Origin: an uncultured Verrucomicrobiae bacterium
Lineage (GTDB): Bacteria; Verrucomicrobiota; Verrucomicrobiia; Limisphaerales; Palsa-1400
Reading direction: 5' to 3'
NCBI GenBank assembly: GCA_963702845.1
Contig: OY969763.1
Span: 3,776,001 to 3,840,000, forward strand
Length of the DNA: 64,000 nt
The translations under genes and the position numbers were made by a program. The notes beneath the pieces are model-generated. The model had not been told where the DNA came from. It did no database searches and worked only from the letters and a program-made list of their open reading frames with translations. Below are positions 13,894-60,182 of this stretch, piece after piece; positions within the stretch are counted from its first letter, which is position 1; every line of letters begins with the position of its first letter.

Positions 13894-16095
13894 TTACGGA
13901 GTCTGCTTGGGCGCTTTTATTACATCGCCTTTTGTTGCCTCACCGGCTTGCGACGTTTTGCCGACTCCGATCTTCTTCAGGAACGGCTGGATCGACTCTT
14001 TGCGTCCGAGGAATTTCTCGATGGAAATGTTCACGTCGCGCGAGTCGCCCTGCGCGTAGATTTCGTCGCGAAGACGCATGCCGACATCTTTGTCGAAATA
14101 GCCGTCGGGTGCTTTTTCGAAAACGCTAGCCATGTCGGAGGCGATGGCGTCGGCCCAGGCGTAACCATAATAACCTGCGGCGTAGCCCATCAGGTGACCG
14201 AAGTAGGCGACGAATGCGGTGTCCGGCGGCTCGGGTAAAAAGACTTCGCCTTCGATGCGGTTGGACATGGGCACGACCTGGTCCTTGTTGTCCTCATGGA
14301 TGCGCGTGTGCAGCGCGAGGTCAACGAGGCCGAACGCGAGTTGGCGACGATAGAACGTGCCTTCGGTCGCCATGCGCGCTTCTTTCAGTTTGTCGAGAAT
14401 CGCGGCCGGAATTTTTTTCGACGGGTCACGGTAATCGGCCGCGAAACTGTCCAAAACTTTTTTGTCCCAAACCCAGTTCTCAAGCATTTGCGACGGGGCT
14501 TCGACGAAGTCGCGAGGGACGCTGGTGCCGGCGAAACGGGAGTAGTTGGCGCGCGTCAGGATGGAATGCATGGCGTGGCCGAATTCGTGGAAGATCGTTT
14601 CGACGTCGCGATGTGACATGAGCGAGGGCTTGTCGCCAGAGGGCGATGGGAAGTTGCAAATCAAGGCGACGGTTGGGCGCTGATATAGCCCATTCTCGAG
14701 TTGTTTACCTTCAATGATTCCAAACTGGGCGAAGTGGTTGTATTTGCCTTCGCGCGGGAACATATCGAGGTAAAACAGGCCGAGGGGCTCGCCGGTTTTG
14801 GCGTCGCGGACTCCGTAGAGTTGTAAATCGCCGATCCATTTATACGGCGGCGTCAGCACATCGAATTTCAGACCAAAGATTCTCTGGTAAATGCTGAACA
14901 TACCGTCGACAACGTGTTGGTATGGGAAATAAACTTTAAGCTGTTCAGCATCGATATTGTATTTCTGTTTCTTGAGTTGATTGCTGTAATAGCGCCAATC
15001 CCAGAGGTTGATCTTCGCGTTTTGGTCACCGGTTTCTTTGACTTTCATCGCGCGGAATTCGGCCATCTCAGCGTCGAACTTGGGCTGCAGACCTGTTTTC
15101 AACTTCTCCAAAAAGTCTTCAGCGGTCTTGGCGTTTTTAACCATTTTCGTTTCGGTTTCGTAATCGGCGTAGGTTTTGTAGCCGAGCTTGTGGGCGATGT
15201 CGTCGCGCAGGACTATAATCTGTTGCAGCAACGGAACGTTTTCTTTGCGGGCCAGGTTGTCACGTGCGGTTTCGAGCCTCAGGCGGGTAGCTTCGACTTT
15301 GCAGTTGTCGAGCACGGTTGTGTAGTGCCACGTGATATTCGCCATGACGGCATAGGTCTCATTGCTCTGATTCACGCCCGGCGAATTCAGGAAATCTTCA
15401 GGGACACCGTCGAGTTCGGCTTTGGTGAAGACGATCTTCTTTTGAGCTTTGGTGACGTTGCTCTCGAAATCGGTGGTCAGGCCCGAGAGCTTCTTGCGCA
15501 ATTTCTCCACTTCATCGCGTTGGGGCTTCGGCAATTCCAAACCGGCACGGCGATAATCGCGCATCGTCTCTTTCAGGAGCTTGTTATCTTCGCCTTTGAG
15601 CGTGGGGTGCGTGTCGGCGTAGGCTTTGACTGCTTTATAGACGTCTTCGCGATAGTCGAGGCCGACCATCCACTCTTCGAGGACTTTGATCTGATCCGTT
15701 GCGGCATCGCGAACGGCGGCGTCGGTGCTGGTTTCTTTAATCAGCGACAGGCGATTGGCGGCAGTGCCGATGTCGTAGCCGAGGTCGTCCAAGGCGCGGA
15801 TGGTGTTCTGGAAATTGGCCTCGCCAGGCTGGAGCTTGCCGATTTTGTCCAGCTCTGCGTTGGCGATGTCCATCGTGTGCTTCACCGTGGTGGCGATGGC
15901 GTTTGAGCTCGTCTCGAATTTCGGGACGCTGATAATGGAGTGGAATTGTTTGGCGGCTTTTTCGTAGTTGGCCAAGGTCGGATGTTCTTCCGACGCGAGA
16001 ATGGATTTTGATTCCTGGGCACCGACCATAGAGGTAAAGCAAAGCAGAGCAGCGAGTCCGCATCCGGACCGGCTCAACAATTGTCGTAGTGTCAT
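13894..16095 (-). CDS. M3A family metallopeptidase (thimet oligopeptidase-like) with signal peptide
   Basis: FYLDMFPREGKYNH, TIFHEFGHAMH (HExxH), DFVEAPSQMLE and GYAAGYYGYAWA motifs. Confidence 0.93.
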   Translation of the reverse strand: MTLRQLLSRSGCGLAALLCFTSMVGAQESKSILASEEHPTLANYEKAAKQFHSIISVPKFETSSNAIATTVKHTMDIANAELDKIGKLQPGEANFQNTIRALDDLGYDIGTAANRLSLIKETSTDAAVRDAATDQIKVLEEWMVGLDYREDVYKAVKAYADTHPTLKGEDNKLLKETMRDYRRAGLELPKPQRDEVEKLRKKLSGLTTDFESNVTKAQKKIVFTKAELDGVPEDFLNSPGVNQSNETYAVMANITWHYTTVLDNCKVEATRLRLETARDNLARKENVPLLQQIIVLRDDIAHKLGYKTYADYETETKMVKNAKTAEDFLEKLKTGLQPKFDAEMAEFRAMKVKETGDQNAKINLWDWRYYSNQLKKQKYNIDAEQLKVYFPYQHVVDGMFSIYQRIFGLKFDVLTPPYKWIGDLQLYGVRDAKTGEPLGLFYLDMFPREGKYNHFAQFGIIEGKQLENGLYQRPTVALICNFPSPSGDKPSLMSHRDVETIFHEFGHAMHSILTRANYSRFAGTSVPRDFVEAPSQMLENWVWDKKVLDSFAADYRDPSKKIPAAILDKLKEARMATEGTFYRRQLAFGLVDLALHTRIHEDNKDQVVPMSNRIEGEVFLPEPPDTAFVAYFGHLMGYAAGYYGYAWADAIASDMASVFEKAPDGYFDKDVGMRLRDEIYAQGDSRDVNISIEKFLGRKESIQPFLKKIGVGKTSQAGEATKGDVIKAPKQTP

Positions 16096-16190
16096 AGGCG
16101 AAAGGATTAAGCTAAATAATAGTTTACGCAAGTGGGACAGGGCCTGAGGGCAGAGCGTTCGAACTAAGGTGAGCTTACCCAAGCAAACAA

Positions 16191-16231
16191 CCTCCCCTCC
16201 CCGGCCCCCTCCTCCAGAGGCGGAGAGGGAG
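16191..16231. repeat. Intergenic REP-like palindrome (same family as the manA element)
   Basis: CCTCCCCTCCCCGGCCCCCTCCTCCAGAGGCGGAGAGGGAG aligns with 3988-4025. Confidence 0.75.
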
Positions 16232-16250
16232 AAAAGCGGAAAAAAACTAC

Positions 16251-16377
16251 TGCGACTAGGCGCGACCCAGTGCGACTAGGCGCGACCCAGTGCGACTAGG
16301 CGCGACCCAGTGCGACTGGGTGCGACCAGGTGCGACAAACCGATGAGTAGTCGCACCCGAGTCGCAGTTGGGTCGCA
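16251..16377. repeat. 10-bp-period tandem array (YGCGAC core x9, including three perfect 20-mers) plus three inverted GTCGCA copies
   Basis: TGCGACTAGGCGCGACCCAG x3 at 16251-16310. Cores continue at 16311, 16321 and 16331. Inverted cores lie at 16350, 16361 and 16372. Confidence 0.95.
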
Positions 16378-16406
16378 GCACCAGTTGAGGGCCGGAAAAA
16401 ACAGTT

Positions 16407-16750
16407 TTGGTTACCGTTACCTTCGGTTGGTTACCGTTGGTTACCGGGGTCGTCAGTTCGCGCGAAGAGGATTGAGCTGTAACGGCTAAACAATCTTTTA
16501 TTTTGCCGTTAGGAAGTGTTAGCGGGCGATAGCAGGTGTTAGATAACGTTAACGGATTCCACGGCAAAAGGCCGATCAGTGGAGCGGGAATTAAAGGATT
16601 CCTTATTTTTGTGTCAGAAGGTGTCCGAAGGTGACATGTAACGTCGAATGAGTTAACCGCTGAATACGCAGATGGCGCGGAAGGGGGCGGGAAAAAAATG
16701 ATTTTTTTTAAAATCGATATTAACCGGTACAACTCGATACTGCCCGGTAC
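16407..16750. repeat. Four further short arrays with 10-bp period and different cores
   Basis: TTGGTTACCG at 16407/16427/16437. GWTAR (GTTAG-like) at 16508/18/28/38/48. GTGWC at 16611/21/31. CGRTAY at 16715/25/35/45. Confidence 0.8.
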
Positions 16751-16917
16751 GTGTGAGCAAAGGACGCAGAATAAAGCATGAAAGATGAAGTTGAGATAGC
16801 GCCGAAACGGTGAGGATTGACGGGCACACCGCTGGCGTCCGCCTTTGCGCGGCTACGGCGCGACAAGCGAGATTTGTTCGCGGTTTTGTTGCGGGTCGCA
16901 TAGCTGTAAATTTCAGA

Positions 16918-17026
16918 TTTCAAAGATCGCGCTTTAGCGATTCAATTCAGGGCTTCGGAAAGACCTTCTATTGATTCCTACCCAAGTAGGGGTGAAGGAG
17001 TTTACTATAACGTTGCTGTATGTCAA
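16918..17026 (-). promoter_or_regulatory. Putative sigma70 promoter, 5' hairpin and boxA-like antitermination motif
   Basis: Minus strand: TTGACA (17026-17021), a 16-nt spacer, then TAAACT (17004-16999). Hairpin at 16964-16998. GATCTTTGAAA at 16928-16918. Confidence 0.6.
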
Positions 17027-17176
17027 CTATTGAAGCAACGCGTATCCGTCAGCTTGGCCATCGGCCCCGAAAGCGGGAAATCGCTGATTAGTTGTCGATA
17101 CTCAGAACCGACCCGTTTTACGATCTCAATATGTGCTGAACTGTGACGTCGCCCCGCCGTCCGCTGAGGTGACCTC

Positions 17177-17748
17177 GTTAGCCTTCAGGTCAATAAATCT
17201 CATAAATTCTGTCCGTCACTCGGTTGTAACTGTCGTAATGGTTGCCAGACACACCACCACGAGCTGGCTGTGGCCGATAGCTCGCTGCATTGGTGGCGCA
17301 AACTACCTCAAGCCCAAAATACGGGGTTGAGTGTCCACCAGTCGAATGCATACCGAAAATCCTAATGCGCACAACCACAACCTGAGGCTCATCCTTGAAT
17401 TCTCGCGATAGGGTCGGTGAGTAGTAACGCACCTCCCGCGGCTGGAGTGCTGCCAGTGATGGTGGCAGCGCGTTCGTCGCGCCACGATACCAGTCAAATG
17501 CGCTGTCTCGATGCTGCTCCACGAGTGCATCACACTCTTTTTGTAAAGCGGCCCAACCATCTGCTGACTGAACTCGCTTGATGACCTTCTGTCGCTGCGT
17601 GCGTCGCTCAAGCCAATCTGGTGGCCACGAGTTGAGCAACGACGGCAAGATGAAATAGAGAACGAACAAACCCACCGGTATCCAGAGAATGGAAGGCGAA
17701 CTCTTTTTAGGTGGTAGTAAATCTGCCATGCGCGTAGTGCAGGCTAAC
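17177..17748 (-). mobile_element. Solo integron-like gene cassette (core and inverse-core sites; attC degenerate or truncated)
   Basis: Core GTTAGCC at 17748-17742. The complementary inverse core GGCTAAC at 17183-17177 lies 6 nt after the stop. No integrase is present in the window. Confidence 0.55.
17190..17729 (-). CDS. Hypothetical membrane-anchored protein, probably an integron-like gene cassette
   Basis: 180-codon ORF with an N-terminal TM helix. It is flanked on the coding strand by GTTAGCC upstream and GGCTAAC downstream. Confidence 0.7.
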   Translation of the reverse strand: MADLLPPKKSSPSILWIPVGLFVLYFILPSLLNSWPPDWLERRTQRQKVIKRVQSADGWAALQKECDALVEQHRDSAFDWYRGATNALPPSLAALQPREVRYYSPTLSREFKDEPQVVVVRIRIFGMHSTGGHSTPYFGLEVVCATNAASYRPQPARGGVSGNHYDSYNRVTDRIYEIY

Positions 17749-17840
17749 AATTAATCTGCGCCAACTGTTCGCATAGTTTTAATCCGCGACCAAGGGTTTT
17801 AAAGGTGGCGCGCAGGTTTGGCGCGAGCAGTAATGGTGGC

Positions 17841-18001
17841 AGCTCCGTTAGGAGCGTCATGCTTATAGAAACCGGATTACAAGATATACCAAGCTCCGTA
17901 GCAGCGGCATGAAGGCGGTGGCGATTCTGCAACGTGCCGCTCCTACGGAGCTTGGTTGTTCTTGGTTGATCTACTATAGACATGGCGCTCCTAACGGAGC
18001 T
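17841..18001. repeat. Nested inverted REP doublets (REPIN-like hairpin, GCTCCGT(T)AGGAGC units)
   Basis: Outer arms 17841-17868/17974-18001 match at 25 of 28 positions. Inner arms 17889-17911/17933-17955 match at 21 of 23. Confidence 0.85.
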
Positions 18002-18134
18002 AGGCAGCGAAACTTCTTCCGCAGTCACCGAGCCCCTTTCCGTGACCACCCAAACGCTTTCCGCGACCATGACAACCCTCTCCGCAGGCACGGGAACTTC
18101 TGCCGTGGTCACTCCCGTCCTTTCCGCTGTCACC
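18000..18134. repeat. Degenerate 21-bp tandem repeat, about 6.5 units
   Basis: Units end in TTCC/CTCC/TGCC at 18020, 18041, 18062, 18083, 18104 and 18125. Confidence 0.75.
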
Positions 18135-18201
18135 AAGTGAGCGGCGTGGGTTTTTTAATATACAATGGAGTGGTTGCTGCCCAATAGTTGCCGAGAACCG
18201 T

Positions 18202-18552
18202 ATGTTGAATTGGCTAAAGAAAATCACAGGGCCGAAAGAGAAATGGCTGCGATTGCAGCAAATGCCTGGGACGCCATTCCCTTTTCCTAAAGGCGCAAAG
18301 TTGAGGCCAGAGGAGGAAGTGGTTTTAGCTCTTCCAAAAGCGCTGATCGCAGACAATGAGACGATTGGATCCGTTTTACTATGTGACAATGACGCTGGGT
18401 TCACCATCAACGATGAGGCGGGGGCTTTATACGTCAAACTCAAACCTGGGATGACATTCTCGCTCTCAAAATCGTGCGAAATTATGGTGATAACCGAAGA
18501 TCGTCGCCCGCGCTTTTTCCAATACATGGCACCAGACAAAAGGATTACTTAA
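18202..18552 (+). CDS. Hypothetical protein
   Basis: 116-aa ORF with an ATG start and protein-like composition. No recognisable motif. Confidence 0.6.
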   Translation: MLNWLKKITGPKEKWLRLQQMPGTPFPFPKGAKLRPEEEVVLALPKALIADNETIGSVLLCDNDAGFTINDEAGALYVKLKPGMTFSLSKSCEIMVITEDRRPRFFQYMAPDKRIT

Positions 18553-18813
18553 GCGATTCCCGCTTTGCGGCTTGAAGTTTAACCCATCCGGTTACCTGCG
18601 AATCGAGACGCGCCATGTTCTTTGCGCCGACGTGGCAGATGTCGGACGTGCCCAAAACTGACCAGCTTACGGCGTTGTTCATCCCAGAGCCGAAACGTGA
18701 AGGACTTTAAGCTTCCCCAAAAGGTGACCGGCTTGACGCTTACACGGACCTACACGAACGAGCACGGATTACAAAATGCTGTATCGGCCCATGCACAAGG
18801 ACCTTGTTCCAGT

Positions 18814-19710
18814 TCACTGCGAGGCCTGCTCGGGTTGTGGGTGGACAAGATCGTTGAACAGGTCGCGCAGGTGCGCTGGGATTTGGCCTTGGATGATTTT
18901 CCAGGGGCCACCGGTTGAGAACCAACTGCTACCTGATTTGATGCTCAGGTTGTAGCTTCCGTCAGGGTGGCGGAGCAGTGAGATGGTTTTTGGTTTCGCA
19001 CCAGACTGGCTGAATTGCTGATCGAGCCAAGTTTCGGATGTCTGTAATAGAAGGTCTGCGCGTTGCGCACCAATTTCATCACGCAGGGCTGTCTCGAATT
19101 GTTGCATAAACCGTTTTCCATCCTCGGGCTGCGGCTGCACGCGGATGGTCAATTTTTCGCCCTTTTGTCCGGCGATGCCGGGCAGGTCGTCATCTGTTTT
19201 CTCGGCTTTGGCGGTCTCAATGGCGTGATACTCAGCTAACAGGTTTGTCAGTGTGGCATTAAGCGCAATGGTTTGTTTTTCGTTCAAGGTCAGGACGGCA
19301 GCGACGTCGGCATTTACCGCGCCGTTTTCATTGAAGGCTTGGACGGGGAGCTTGGGCAGGATGTCCTTTCGCAGCCAGACATAGGGTGACCCGTTGATCC
19401 AATTCGGCAATGTGGAAGGTGCCGCAACCCAACGGCTTTCTGGGGCCACTTTACTCAATGCGGCCTCCGCTCTCGCAATGGCGGACCGGGTTTGTTTTCG
19501 ATTCGAGTTCTGAGTCTGCAATTCGCGACGGGCGGATTCCAGTTCGGCGGTCGCGGCGTTGATGCGCTCTTCAAGCTTGAGCCGCTGCGCGTTCGTTTCG
19601 GCCAATGCCGCGTGCGCTTCGGTGAGATGGCGTTGATGCGGAATCCACACTGCCGTTGCCGCAGAGAGGATCAACAGGATCAGAATTATTTTAAACAAGC
19701 GCTTTGACAT
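18814..19710 (-). CDS. Membrane-anchored or exported coiled-coil protein, paralog of the upstream ECF sigma C-terminal domain
   Basis: MSKRLFKIILILLILSAATAVW TM/signal segment followed by a coiled coil. It aligns by eye with the C-terminal half of 19718..21301 and starts 7 nt after that gene's stop. Confidence 0.8.
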   Translation of the reverse strand: MSKRLFKIILILLILSAATAVWIPHQRHLTEAHAALAETNAQRLKLEERINAATAELESARRELQTQNSNRKQTRSAIARAEAALSKVAPESRWVAAPSTLPNWINGSPYVWLRKDILPKLPVQAFNENGAVNADVAAVLTLNEKQTIALNATLTNLLAEYHAIETAKAEKTDDDLPGIAGQKGEKLTIRVQPQPEDGKRFMQQFETALRDEIGAQRADLLLQTSETWLDQQFSQSGAKPKTISLLRHPDGSYNLSIKSGSSWFSTGGPWKIIQGQIPAHLRDLFNDLVHPQPEQASQ

Positions 19711-19717
19711 GGCGGAT

Positions 19718-21301
19718 TCAGTTTTTGGTAGGCTGGCTTCGTGCGAGAGTGATCCAATCCTGAAGATCAGCACGGAACATTTCCGGAATGTCATCCAGTG
19801 GGATCGATGTCCAATAACCTTCGCCATTGTTTTTCCCGACGCTCCAGTCGAGCCAGTCATTGCCGGGCCGTGGTTGGTAAAAGCGCACGCGACGGTCGAA
19901 ATTGAAAACAGCCAATCCGGAATTGAGGCCGTGGTTTTCGTCGTCGGTCGGCATCCATTCGGCAAGTGCGGCTTTGAATTGGTGTGAACGTTCTGGTCCG
20001 AGCGTGTTCTCCAGTTCGCCAAAGAAGGTTGCTCTCAATTCACCGAAGCGGTCCCCAATGGCAGTCATTTCAAATACTCGCGTTTGTGCGGCGTTACGGC
20101 CACTCAGGTCGCTATCGTTGGGGTCAACCCGCCGCATTTTCGAAGCTTGCGCGGCATGGTAGGTGGCCAGAAAACGGTCGATGGAATCTTGCACGCCTTC
20201 GGTTTCTGCGTCGTTGAGTTGCAACACTTCTTTGATCTGTTCGGTCAGATGGCCACGCTGGTTGCTCACGGCGCCAATCGGAAGCTGGGCTAGAAGCTGC
20301 TTTGGCACTCGGGCCACGGGTGAGCTGTCGTCCCAGTGGTAAGCGGCGATCGGAGCGTGACCGTCGAGTCGAGCATTAAGTGCCGCCAGGCGCAGCTCGT
20401 TGGTGGCTGTTTCACCGCGCGAGACGCGCAGAGTTTCGCGCGTGCGGGCGAGGTTTTTTTCGAGGTCGGCTGCCTGCCGATTGGAAGCGACGAGTTGGGT
20501 ATTTAACTGGGCCTGTTCGCGAGTGACACGCGCTTGAGCGTGCGATTGCCAGGCGAGAGGCGTGGCGGCAATTACTGCGCACAGAACTATGGTTTGGGTT
20601 TTTGTGAGGGCCATAAGATTGAAAAGCAGAAGGTTGAGACCGGTGGACGCGCCGCCAGCAGCCAGCCCGGCATTGCTCGCGGATATTGCAAGCCCCGCGG
20701 GTGCTGCTTTTGCAGCGTTAGCAAGGACTGCCGCGCCACCGGCAGCGGTGCCTGTTGTGAAACCTTTGCTGCGGAAGAATGCGTTGAGCCGTTCGAGGGC
20801 GCGCGAAACGCGTTTGCGGGCGGCATCTTCGTTTACGCCCAAGGCAGCACCAACTTCTCGCAGACTGCGGTCCTCCAAAAAACGGAGCATCAGTGCCAGC
20901 CGATCGCCTTCGCGCAGGCTGAGCAGCGCTTCATCGACGAGCGGAATCATGGCGGCAAACGGTGAAGCGCCCTCGCGTTGAAGCTGACCGAGTTCAACGG
21001 CGACTTCCTCGCGACGGCGGCGGCGCAATTCTGAACGGATGCGGGATTTTGATTCGAGAACCGCGGCGCGATGGAGCCAGCCGGCCAGTGTTTCGACCCC
21101 GCCGAGGCGTGGCGCTTTGCAGGCGAGGGCGACAAAAACGTTTTGGGTTATTTCCTCAGCGAGTCCGGTATTACCCACCTGCCGTAACGCAGTGGCGTAG
21201 ACGAGATCGACATGCCGCTGCACGAGAGCGCGGAAGGCGGCTTCCGAGCCATGCGCCGCGTAGGCGCTCACTAATTCGCAGTCAGGCGATGCAGCAGTCA
21301 T
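19718..21301 (-). CDS. ECF RNA polymerase sigma factor with a long C-terminal TM and extracytoplasmic extension
   Basis: Sigma region 2 (AFRALVQRHVDLVY...AEEITQNVF...LAGWL) and region 4 (LMLRFLEDRSLREVGAALGVNEDAARKRVSRALERL), then an Ala/Gly linker, a TM helix and a coiled coil. Confidence 0.92.
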   Translation of the reverse strand: MTAASPDCELVSAYAAHGSEAAFRALVQRHVDLVYATALRQVGNTGLAEEITQNVFVALACKAPRLGGVETLAGWLHRAAVLESKSRIRSELRRRRREEVAVELGQLQREGASPFAAMIPLVDEALLSLREGDRLALMLRFLEDRSLREVGAALGVNEDAARKRVSRALERLNAFFRSKGFTTGTAAGGAAVLANAAKAAPAGLAISASNAGLAAGGASTGLNLLLFNLMALTKTQTIVLCAVIAATPLAWQSHAQARVTREQAQLNTQLVASNRQAADLEKNLARTRETLRVSRGETATNELRLAALNARLDGHAPIAAYHWDDSSPVARVPKQLLAQLPIGAVSNQRGHLTEQIKEVLQLNDAETEGVQDSIDRFLATYHAAQASKMRRVDPNDSDLSGRNAAQTRVFEMTAIGDRFGELRATFFGELENTLGPERSHQFKAALAEWMPTDDENHGLNSGLAVFNFDRRVRFYQPRPGNDWLDWSVGKNNGEGYWTSIPLDDIPEMFRADLQDWITLARSQPTKN

Positions 21302-21427
21302 TTCAATCTATATACTGCCGGAGCCGGCCAAAACCGGACAGTTTAGAAGCACAAAAAACAGCCAAGTCATTAGTGCCGCGTCGTGGAATAGGTCCGATTG
21401 ATTTGATTTGCTGAGAATATCCTCATG

Positions 21428-21454
21428 CGGCGCTCGCGGAGCGAACGCCCTACC
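21428..21454 (-). repeat. GTAG-type REP-like palindrome
   Basis: Minus strand GGTAGGGCGTTCGCTCCGCGAGCGCCG just downstream of the murJ stop. Confidence 0.6.
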
Positions 21455-21456
21455 AC

Positions 21457-23049
21457 TTAGCGGCGGAGCAGCAGATTCGTGATGTCTTGCGCGGACGGGA
21501 CGCGGAGCAGCAACGCGATGGCAAAATAGATGGCGGAGGCCAGGGTCATCGGCACGAAGACTTCGCCGAGTTTGAGCGCGAGATTCTCGTGGCCATAGTG
21601 ACCAGTCCAATATTCGCGCGAATACCAAGCGATGATTGCGGCGATGACGGCGGCAATGAGGATTCTTGGAATGGCGCGGAAAAAATCGGTCAGTTCGAGG
21701 GTTTTGAGTTTTTTGCCGAGGAAACTGCCGAGCAAGGCGACGTTGACTGCGGAGGTGAGTGTATTGGCAAGACCCAAGGAACCGGAGCCGAGCTTGAATT
21801 GAAACAGGAATACCGCGGTGAAGATGAGGTTTATGAGCAGACAGAAGATGCTGATGCGCATCGGCGTTTTGATGTCGCCCATCGCGTAAAAGGCGCGGGC
21901 GAGAATGTTGACGCACGAAAACGCGACCAGTCCTGGGACGAGGCACACGACGGCGAAGCTGACGTTGGCGGTTGAATGGGCGGTGAATTTTCCGTGCTGG
22001 AACAGTAATCGCACAATGGGTTCGGCGAGAATGAACAATAAAATGGACGCAAGCAGGTTGACGAAAAAAACGTGCGCCAATCCCTGGCGAAGCATGGAGC
22101 GAAAGCCGCCGTAGTTTTTTTCGGCAGCCAATCCTGACAAGGTCGGCAACAGGAATGTGGCGAGCGAAATGCCGAAGACGCCTTGTGGCACTTCCATGAG
22201 GCGGGTCGCGTAGTTGAATTCGGCGTTGATCGATTTGTCCACGCCGAACGCGAGGATTTGCGTGAGCATGACGTTGATCTGGAAGGCCGCAACTCCGACG
22301 GAAGCGGGGATCATTTGGATGACAACTTTATGCACTGTTGCGTCGCGCCACGGAGCAATCCAGCGATAGCGAAAGCCTTCGCGGCGCAGGCTGGGCAGTT
22401 GGAAGCAGGCTTGGGCGACTCCTGCGGCGAGGACGCCGTATGCGAGAACGAAAATTCGTGTACGCAGTTGTTCGTCCGACAATTCAGATACGTGTCCGTG
22501 ATGGAAAAGCAGGTTGCGGTTCGCGATAAAAACGGACGCGATCATGACGATGTTGAGGCTGGCTGCGCCTAAAGTCGGGATGAAAAAGTAGCCACGGGCA
22601 TTGAGGATGCCCATCATGACGGCGGCGAGACAGGCCAGGATCATGTAGGGAAACATCAGCCGCAAAAGGCCTAACATGAGTTGTGTATCTGGCGAGAATC
22701 GGTCCCGAAAAAAGAACAGGATCAGGGTCACAACGAGGACGGCGATTACGCAAATGATAGTCGATGCAACGATCAAACCGGAGAGGACGGCGTTGCCCGC
22801 GCGCCACATTTCGGTTTCGCCTTCGTTTTTTTCTTTGGCTTTGAAAATGGGGATGAATGAAGCGCTGAGTATGCCTTCGCCGAGTAAACGGCGGAACAGG
22901 TTCGGGATGGTAAAGGCGAGGACGAATGCGCTCGCGACGGCGCTGGTGCCCATGAACCAACCGTAAACTTGTTCGCGAACGAGGCCGAGAAGGCGGCTGG
23001 TCAAAGTAGCAGCGCCCATGGCTCCCGACGATTTCAACATCTGCGACAT
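21457..23049 (-). CDS. murJ: Lipid II flippase MurJ (MviN)
   Basis: SRLLGLVRE, AFTIPNLFRRLLGEG, SFIPIF, YATRLMEVPQGVFG and AFYAMGDIKTP motifs. Confidence 0.95.
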   Translation of the reverse strand: MSQMLKSSGAMGAATLTSRLLGLVREQVYGWFMGTSAVASAFVLAFTIPNLFRRLLGEGILSASFIPIFKAKEKNEGETEMWRAGNAVLSGLIVASTIICVIAVLVVTLILFFFRDRFSPDTQLMLGLLRLMFPYMILACLAAVMMGILNARGYFFIPTLGAASLNIVMIASVFIANRNLLFHHGHVSELSDEQLRTRIFVLAYGVLAAGVAQACFQLPSLRREGFRYRWIAPWRDATVHKVVIQMIPASVGVAAFQINVMLTQILAFGVDKSINAEFNYATRLMEVPQGVFGISLATFLLPTLSGLAAEKNYGGFRSMLRQGLAHVFFVNLLASILLFILAEPIVRLLFQHGKFTAHSTANVSFAVVCLVPGLVAFSCVNILARAFYAMGDIKTPMRISIFCLLINLIFTAVFLFQFKLGSGSLGLANTLTSAVNVALLGSFLGKKLKTLELTDFFRAIPRILIAAVIAAIIAWYSREYWTGHYGHENLALKLGEVFVPMTLASAIYFAIALLLRVPSAQDITNLLLRR

Positions 23050-57931: not shown

Positions 57932-58246
57932 AACACTTACGATTACTTTTGAGATTCCGATTTGAACCCGCGCCTTGCGACGCGTCAATCGTAAATCGTC
58001 AAACGCAAATCGTAAATTTACGAGTTCGATCTCTTCCACTTGTTAAAGAACAAAAGTCCGCTCCGCAATGTTTAACGTTGCTGATCGAACCGAACGCATC
58101 CATTTGCGTTCCGGCTATTGAAAGCCCATTGAAATCTGAATTGTGCGAATAGATTGAGCCAAAATCTGTGATTTCAAATTTAACTCTGAAATCTCAGACC
58201 GACCTAGGAACGATGGTTAGAAACCGAAGTTTCACCCATCTCCATG

Positions 58247-59943: not shown

Positions 59944-60182
59944 AATTCAATTTTCAATGAGCAGTCGAGTTTCAGTCTTTGTTACGTTTTTACCGCAACA
60001 ACCACCTTCCACCCAAAATTATCCTTGTTGTTCCAACGCAACTTATTGCGTTTTCCCAACTTTGTTTTTGTCGTGACGACAAAAACGCCCGAGCTGCCGA
60101 TTCTCGCTCTTAACTACTCGGCATCTCAGACACCTTCGTTAACTGTCCGATTACTTTATCTTCATCGGCCACCGGTTGTCAA
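59944..60182 (-). promoter_or_regulatory. rrn leader: putative promoter and boxA-like motif
   Basis: TTGACA at 60182-60177, an 18-nt spacer, then TAAAGT. GCTCATTGAAAATTGAA lies at about 59962-59946. Confidence 0.55.

Follow-up and report, generated by a model that had tools for sequence, protein, structure and literature searches.

What is the untranslated, repeat-filled DNA that separates an M3 peptidase gene from an unannotated frame of 186 codons (17190-17750) in an uncultured Verrucomicrobiae bacterium? The locus belongs to a window of 64,000 nucleotides (G000:C1:3,776,001-3,840,000), G000 being the genome and C1 its single 6.03-Mb contig. The initial annotation read the region as a minus-strand promoter, a hairpin and a boxA-like motif that point into periodic arrays, and proposed an antiterminated non-coding transcript or a long leader. 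The boxA motif has been described chiefly in rRNA operons, in the leaders of CRISPR arrays and in a handful of autoregulated genes. Our analysis shows that the focal region belongs to a repeat element family with dozens of copies. The element is real and undescribed as far as our literature search reached, and its function is predicted: in the openly accessible paper literature no description of it was found.

Table 1. Features of the focal element and its 3' context (window positions).
Feature	Position	Strand	Remarks
Family promoter and upstream bases	16999..17040	minus	TTGACA 17026-17021, 16-nt spacer, TAAACT 17004-16999
Short 5-bp stem-loop, weak	16977..16990	minus	at predicted transcript start
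boxA-like motif GATCTTTGAAAT	16917..16928	minus	70 nt after -10 box
82-codon upstream frame (MRPATK...)	16653..16901	minus	starts 16 nt after boxA; no Pfam match
Module 1, 10/20-bp array (TACCGG/TATCGA) and A/T tract	16692..16752	minus	
Module 2, GACACC-type array and A/T tract	16593..16640	minus	
Module 3, CTAAC-type array and A/T tract	16488..16556	minus	
Module 4, GGTAAC-type array and A/T tract	16396..16450	minus	
Module 5, inverted arm, GTCGCAC array (20-bp superperiod) and T tract	16232..16380	minus	
Separate REP-like hairpin	16191..16233		marks 3' edge; dispersed in G000 and relatives
M3 oligopeptidase gene	13894..16131	minus	context outside element; own promoter ~16131-16103, conserved in G001

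The focal leader and its arrays

The promoter is present as annotated (17026-16999). Taken alone it is at chance level, one being found against 1.1 +/- 1.2 in shuffles, but it scores 22.9 in the family promoter model described below and carries the family spacer motif; about 12 conserved bases upstream of its -35 box are likely the 5' end of the element. An inverted-repeat operator across the -35 box is present in the focal copy. As a family feature it was rejected, since it showed no enrichment (15 vs 13 of 84), and helical phasing of the promoter motifs was also dropped, the pattern not being clean. The hairpin of about 35 nt proposed at 16964-16998 shrinks to its inner 5-bp stem, 16990-16977; the fold of the region is at shuffle level (z 0.13 and 0.30), and the outer arm would fall upstream of the likely start site. 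A similar stem is found in a paralog at genome position 2,390,000.

The annotated likeness of the motif from 16928 to those of the rrn operon was confirmed by look-alikes at 59961, 57699 and 54615, and we found an additional, fourth rrn motif at 58049; in the 16S-tRNA spacer (57983-58049) this motif is followed by a 7-bp repeat. Downstream of the focal promoter the boxA consensus is represented by GATCTTTGAAA, 70 nt after the -10 box. The focal motif overlaps a common 7-bp repeat (TTTGAAA/TCTGAAA) and differs from the E. coli boxA GYTCTTTAANA at the eighth base. It contains the B. subtilis boxA core GAUCUUUGAAA, which has been shown to bind NusB (PMC13753749); boxA can repress as well (PMC5725501). 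Genes for NusB and Rho are present in G000, with NusB-family matches at C1 positions 3,888,377 and 5,110,923 and Rho RNA-binding family matches at 2,028,759 and 4,238,664.

It was also rightly noted that no credible coding sequence follows boxA. The 82-codon frame has no Pfam match, resembles short frames ahead of arrays in gene-bearing units, and was rejected as a conserved protein because its length and frame vary among paralogs (52-187 aa). The periodic arrays described downstream of boxA were found as five blocks with a 10/20-bp period (shuffle p <= 0.002 each), in which lag identity peaks at 10, 20 and 30 only. Every block ends in an A/T tract, and the tracts are 99, 106, 96 and 162 bp apart.

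An Rfam search, which the initial annotation had suggested, found no family at gathering score in the focal region, and E-value matches were far below the thresholds; a tRNA search gave no match, and no CRISPR-type repeat-spacer structure was present. The focal DNA matched none of 50,697 phage records, and comparison with phage and plasmid collections returned just one 35-nt piece (E 0.07). In the DNA runs X1 and X2, one of them possibly the source sample, 151-nt pieces of the region are near-identical (0-1 differences).

The focal copy is flanked by non-phage genes, and no phage genome with a head operon surrounds it. It lies within a 5.3-kb stretch (16135-21480) that is absent between murJ and M3 in the relative G001, where murJ is located about 130 nt upstream of M3. 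Besides an ECF sigma factor gene, the same stretch holds three frames that lack an annotation; long, nested inverted repeats occupy 17841-18001, and a repeat with a 21-bp period lies at 18002-18126. A short dispersed repeat with at least 6 strict genome matches is found immediately upstream of the promoter (17084-17119); it looks like a REP-transposase-associated end. One would argue that the region is a long antiterminated leader of the downstream M3 gene, or an added promoter for it, as both are on the same strand and no intrinsic terminator was found between boxA and 16061. However, M3 has its own conserved promoter and does without the element in G001. Additionally, 56 of 84 elements and 22 of 38 boxA elements share their strand with the next gene, compared with about 59% expected (p 0.15 and 1.0). 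The host-gene leader is thus very improbable, and we abandoned this part of the original proposal.

A family of dispersed elements

The combination of promoter, boxA and array is far above chance genome-wide. Period-10 arrays number 113 in G000, compared with 0-16 at periods 8, 11, 13, 14, 16, 17 and 19, and fall into about 18 sequence types. A promoter matching at least 10 of 12 positions lies 25-130 nt upstream of 27 of the 84 boxA matches and of none of the 135 matches of five mutated boxA motifs that served as the control (background 0.37%). Arrays within 1 kb of the boxA matches are downstream in 47 of 84 cases and upstream in 2 (background 3.2%). In G000, 84 sites fit a promoter model built from 36 promoters that are linked to boxA; arrays follow 57 of these family promoters and precede none, and a short upstream motif accompanies 53 of the 84, compared with 5 at control positions. 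Among the promoter-linked arrays listed, 65 of 67 have the same orientation as their type. The recurrence that the initial annotation proposed to look for, promoter-boxA followed by 10-bp-period arrays, is found in G000 and also in relatives.

Counts of boxA and of its reversed control are 84/24 in G000, 47/14 in G002, 79/11 in G006, 72/3 in G013, 81/12 in G017 and 82/22 in G022, and much lower in most other genomes of the 41. In G006 and G017 the motif is preceded by leader sequences of their own (30 and 69 matches), and arrays follow these leaders in 10/15 and 8/13 of the fetched loci; upstream there are 0 and 2, the latter two being tandem copies. The promoter-boxA-array layout is thus shared by two other genera with different leader sequences. 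A strict promoter-boxA pattern was found in 4 of 41 relatives and 8 of 201 genomes of the phylum; it missed the G006 and G017 families, which a looser pattern recovered. Of the focal modules, the array type of module 4 also occurs in boxA elements of G002, and that of module 5 follows promoter and boxA in G017.

Arrays and stand-alone terminase-like genes

In some modules the array and its tract run right up to a start codon. The genes that follow code for Mu-gp27-like small terminases (PF11985, phrog_426) or for large terminases of the B3 type, in one case together with a portal, and they are placed among housekeeping genes; the closest named terminase relatives are Verrucomicrobiales or Verrucomicrobiota records. 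The focal modules belong to this set. Module 1 matches the array directly before a gp27-like start in locus L088 (83% over 35 nt, E 3e-4), and module 3 the array directly before a large-terminase start codon in locus L184 (82% over 56 nt, E 4e-9). The tract of module 2 matches the tract before a large-terminase start at genome position 2,184,443, and at two other sites of the genome an array of its GACACC type is followed by an N-terminal terminase stub. A protein search of 146 array flanks found few such stubs beyond the known units. Direct repeats at a terminase gene start are thus a property of the family and of the homologues of modules 1 and 3, the focal copy itself being gene-less.

Two promoter classes are found upstream of these genes, that of the family and another one. 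The latter has a conserved palindromic operator (CACTTGGAC...TCCAAGTG), occupies 25 sites in G000:C1 (e.g., L086, L091 and L095), precedes gp27-like genes as well as gene-less arrays and is also present in G001 and G002.

The association of arrays and gp27-like genes holds beyond G000. Of the 13 gp27-like copies in G000, 8 have an array no more than 800 bp away (background 6%). The same is true of 16 among 22 loci that come from 11 other genomes, compared with 1 array in 51 kb of controls; these loci are 22 of the 23 non-G000 matches, and those truncated by contig ends were scored as misses. For 20 distant gp27-like genes from 10 genomes, hand-chosen from the profile list and none of them in the profile, the count is 18, with 1 array in 143 kb of flank. 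According to the profile, 23 of 24 genomes of the same family have a gp27-like gene (1-15 copies), compared with 3 of 16 others. The gp27-like genes are under purifying selection, with dN about 0.2-0.4 of dS in 9 pairs with estimable dS. As the arrays adjoin stand-alone gp27-like genes across a bacterial family, they are likely binding sites of that protein.

Several observations speak against this reading. Near strict array clusters of G000, gp27-like genes occur in just 7 of 112 cases. Across genomes, boxA leaders and gp27-like genes do not rise and fall together in copy number. The DNA that flanks the genes is generally repeat-rich, period 9 being found near 10 of the 20 distant gp27-like genes, and some 10-bp arrays accompany other genes, namely an HTH gene and a probable four-helix-bundle gene. 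The AlphaFold model of the gp27-like protein is all-helical (pLDDT 81), and a fold search with it gave nothing significant, the best match being a DUF3486 protein (E 0.04). Also the SF6 small-terminase HTH has little specificity for its own direct repeats (PMC4737164), which counts against a gp27-like protein reading the arrays.

The other array-bearing genes deserve a description. The HTH gene (123 aa, weak HTH_23/Terminase_5) has seven copies in G000:C1 (812,791; 877,386; 1,163,814; 1,556,891; 2,104,811; 2,551,163; 3,260,533), four of them 97-100% identical; the gene copies carry their own 10-bp arrays of opposite polarity, and gene-less versions exist too. At G000:C1:4,747,500-4,748,600 another 10-bp repeat (ACACGGACTC) lies on both sides of a gene, presumably coding for a four-helix bundle, and also interrupts it. 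Element-derived coding sequence is also found fused to host genes: an N-terminus runs in frame into homoserine dehydrogenase (L061:7863-10391), and a large-terminase stub runs in frame into the gene downstream of it (L064:2672-4036).

The arrays could also be working pac-like sites. A domesticated phage small terminase would then read phased arrays at 100 or more chromosomal sites, many behind Nus-protected promoters, as a network of packaging starts or decoys. Together with the resident large terminases, portal and capsid, or with a helper phage, it would package and move chromosomal DNA in the manner of a gene-transfer agent, or the arrays would disturb the packaging of incoming phages. G000 has about 8 large-terminase and 13-15 gp27-like copies, mostly among housekeeping genes; ATPase and nuclease motif residues are invariant in 6 aligned large terminases, and the spread of gp27-like genes through nearly all same-family genomes fits as well. 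There is one capsid-adaptor-portal-terminase locus, L068 (G000:C1:5,240,000-5,252,000), in which major head, head-tail adaptor and portal are followed by a split large terminase, an unusual order; it has the sole capsid gene found in G000 and a gp27-like fragment on the other strand. P22 packaging is directed by chromosomal pac-like sites (PMC11260489) and the P1 pac hexamer repeats lie within pacA (PMC10028697).

However, no large terminase is found in the fetched 5-10 kb around the 20 distant gp27-like genes, PADLOC has a match for none of 23 proteins, and the pac-like sites leave boxA unexplained. Related phages also lack the arrays. Phage loci were scanned with the large terminase because the gp27-like alignment is too variable (a viral scan with one gp27-like protein gave no match), and arrays were found in 1 of 73 viral contigs and in 3 of the 72 genomic loci for which sufficient DNA was available upstream. 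The sole array-bearing viral contig, L130 from a Mu-like phage, holds another repeat family: eight 10-bp arrays of unrelated palindromic repeats between genes. B3 and Lsp-JY19 have no arrays. The absence of arrays from related true phages argues that they are not the ancestral phage's pac. A Mu transposase search (PF09299), aimed at a Mu-like prophage remnant, had no match in G000, but none in the control genomes either, and so does not speak for or against one. A packaging or decoy network is a doubtful proposition, if one to be taken seriously.

Predicted transcription of the arrays

No strict boxA was found within 600 nt upstream of the 22 gp27-like genes from other genomes, near the 20 distant ones or within 400 nt after 12 gp27-like gene ends in G000; a boxA after a gp27-like gene was seen in L088, L190 and L193 only. 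As boxA is so seldom part of gene-bearing units, it is linked to the genes via shared promoters and modules and not via a single intact template. Two further ideas were rejected: that boxA and translated leaders are mutually exclusive is a trend only (p 0.085), and a three-frame stop-codon insulator found no support in the counts (52 sense vs 51 antisense of 146 arrays).

The initial annotation suggested an antiterminated non-coding transcript. If this were a functional RNA, its repeats or hairpins would be the active part, as a decoy or scaffold. A relaxed boxA does occur in 48 of 84 leaders compared with 2.5% of intergenic windows, an enrichment that is partly circular because the promoter model was trained on boxA-linked promoters. 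The leaders form more stable folds than their shuffles do (mean z -1.7, n=38), module 5 folds into a long hairpin (z -6.9), and the leaders of G006 and G017 are convergent. Against this, there is no common sequence or structure 3' of boxA, the identity and order of modules differ even at orthologous sites, and the same modules are found at gene starts elsewhere. In the covariation analysis that had been called for, the leader stem is 94% paired in 12 copies, but 56 of 500 shuffles reach its covariation. A conserved structured RNA was thus not supported, as module content and order vary between copies and covariation is not significant, and we regard a functional RNA as improbable. What stands of the annotated transcript is a recurrent leader into untranslated repeats, in which boxA would likely give Nus-protected transcription of the arrays.

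This leader resembles the boxA leaders of rRNA operons and CRISPR loci (PMC13753749, PMC5725501): there is a promoter, a small 5' hairpin and a boxA-like motif before untranslated sequence, with NusB and Rho present. Contrastingly, no rRNA, tRNA or repeat-spacer array lies downstream of the focal boxA, the element has dozens of copies per genome, and its Nus binding is predicted only.

Turnover at orthologous sites

Comparison of species shows how variable the element is. At one orthologous site, the promoter, gene and array of G002 are matched in G000 by a gene-less unit, whose promoter and leader are homologous and whose array is a different one. At several orthologous host genes both species carry a family element, but arrays and far flank differ. 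Module order varies too, the focal modules 1, 2 and 3 running 1, 3, 2 in G002, and in G017 a complete promoter-boxA-array unit is tandemly triplicated. Across 60 G002 contigs (348 kb), 9 of the 22 breaks in synteny have arrays, as does 1 of the 5 short indels, and among the 28 syntenic junctions the number is 2 (p 0.006, breaks vs syntenic junctions); kin genomes are not independent, so that cross-genome p-values overstate. From about 4,104,590 onward in G000:C1 there is also a long perfect TTTTCCA heptamer run between syntenic genes. We infer, as the simplest account of the turnover, recombination between dispersed copies.

Two subfamilies with 8-10 aligned copies are sharp-ended, from about 12 nt before the -35 box to the last A/T tract, so the dispersed copies have the sharp ends that define a non-autonomous mobile repeat. 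Terminal inverted repeats or target duplication were not evident by eye in the two subfamily alignments, and no enzyme mobilising the family was identified. These subfamilies fit neutral or selfish composite repeats of the BOX or REP kind, which would grow by slippage and spread by gene conversion next to any accessory gene, boxA being copied along and no protein reading the arrays. The genome is indeed repeat-rich, with several gene-linked short-period repeats; the copy number of the units varies, and the elements occur in either orientation relative to host genes. However, some 18 unit sequences that are unrelated to each other keep the period of exactly 10 bp; this, a fixed polarity and the retention of boxA under three unrelated leader sequences in three genera speak against such repeats, and this explanation is unlikely.

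Discussion

We favour, with a probability of roughly 0.55, the view that the focal region is the gene-less form of a terminase-gene/array element, reshuffled by recombination, whose arrays are likely protein-binding sites and are likely transcribed under Nus protection. In its layout a sigma-70-type promoter leads, via a short stem and a boxA-like motif, into stacked modules of about 100 bp; they consist of 10-bp direct repeats and an A/T tract each, and modules of this kind flank stand-alone Mu-gp27-like genes. The gp27-like protein would bind the arrays, one repeat per helical turn, as an operator or a pac-like site; genes would have been lost, and modules stacked, through recombination between dispersed copies. 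The boxA would recruit NusB/NusE, so that polymerase could cross the untranslated tract despite Rho. The initial annotation had named as its refuting case that the region is the decayed end of a protein-coding gene. This is partly true: since the arrays belong with stand-alone small-terminase-like genes, a gene-derived remnant is what the focal copy appears to be.

Known systems offer partial parallels. As described in PMC4737164, the direct repeats of SPP1/SF6 pac span the promoter and start of the small-terminase gene (terS), and the HTH motifs of the small terminase are one DNA turn apart on a ring around which about 100 bp could wrap. The pac sites of headful phages (SPP1/SF6, P1, P22) share with the element direct repeats and A/T tracts at a small-terminase promoter or start, units of about 100 bp and helical-turn spacing. 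Unlike them, the copies of the element are dispersed in the host chromosome, mostly gene-less and stacked in variable order, and related B3/Mu-like phages lack the arrays. Mu-type phages package from the genome end. The gp27/gp28 module of B3-like phages has homologous small and large terminase genes (the large subunit is 45-47% identical to those of B3 and Lsp-JY19); in B3, however, these genes abut inside the head operon, whereas in G000 they stand alone with their own promoter and arrays. Pneumococcal BOX and REP/BIME elements are, like this element, modular and dispersed, occur in either orientation and at rearrangement points, and vary in module number. They differ from the element in that it has a full promoter and boxA, unites many unrelated units under one 10-bp period and is tied to a terminase-like gene, not to a known transposase. 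The element would therefore combine a 5' end like that of boxA leaders, modules like pac sites or operators and a spread like that of composite repeats, while a defining feature of each of these systems is absent or putative.

In several uncultured soil-type Verrucomicrobiales-like lineages boxA has been multiplied to about 60-80 matches per genome. What is new is a family-wide, multi-copy, conserved packaging-like phage gene that is tied to helically phased DNA arrays. Natural pairs of proteins and arrays with different units offer a direct and cheap test of DNA reading by such proteins. The element might serve gene transfer or interfere with phages, and it may be a cause of rearrangement hotspots in the genomes that carry the arrays.
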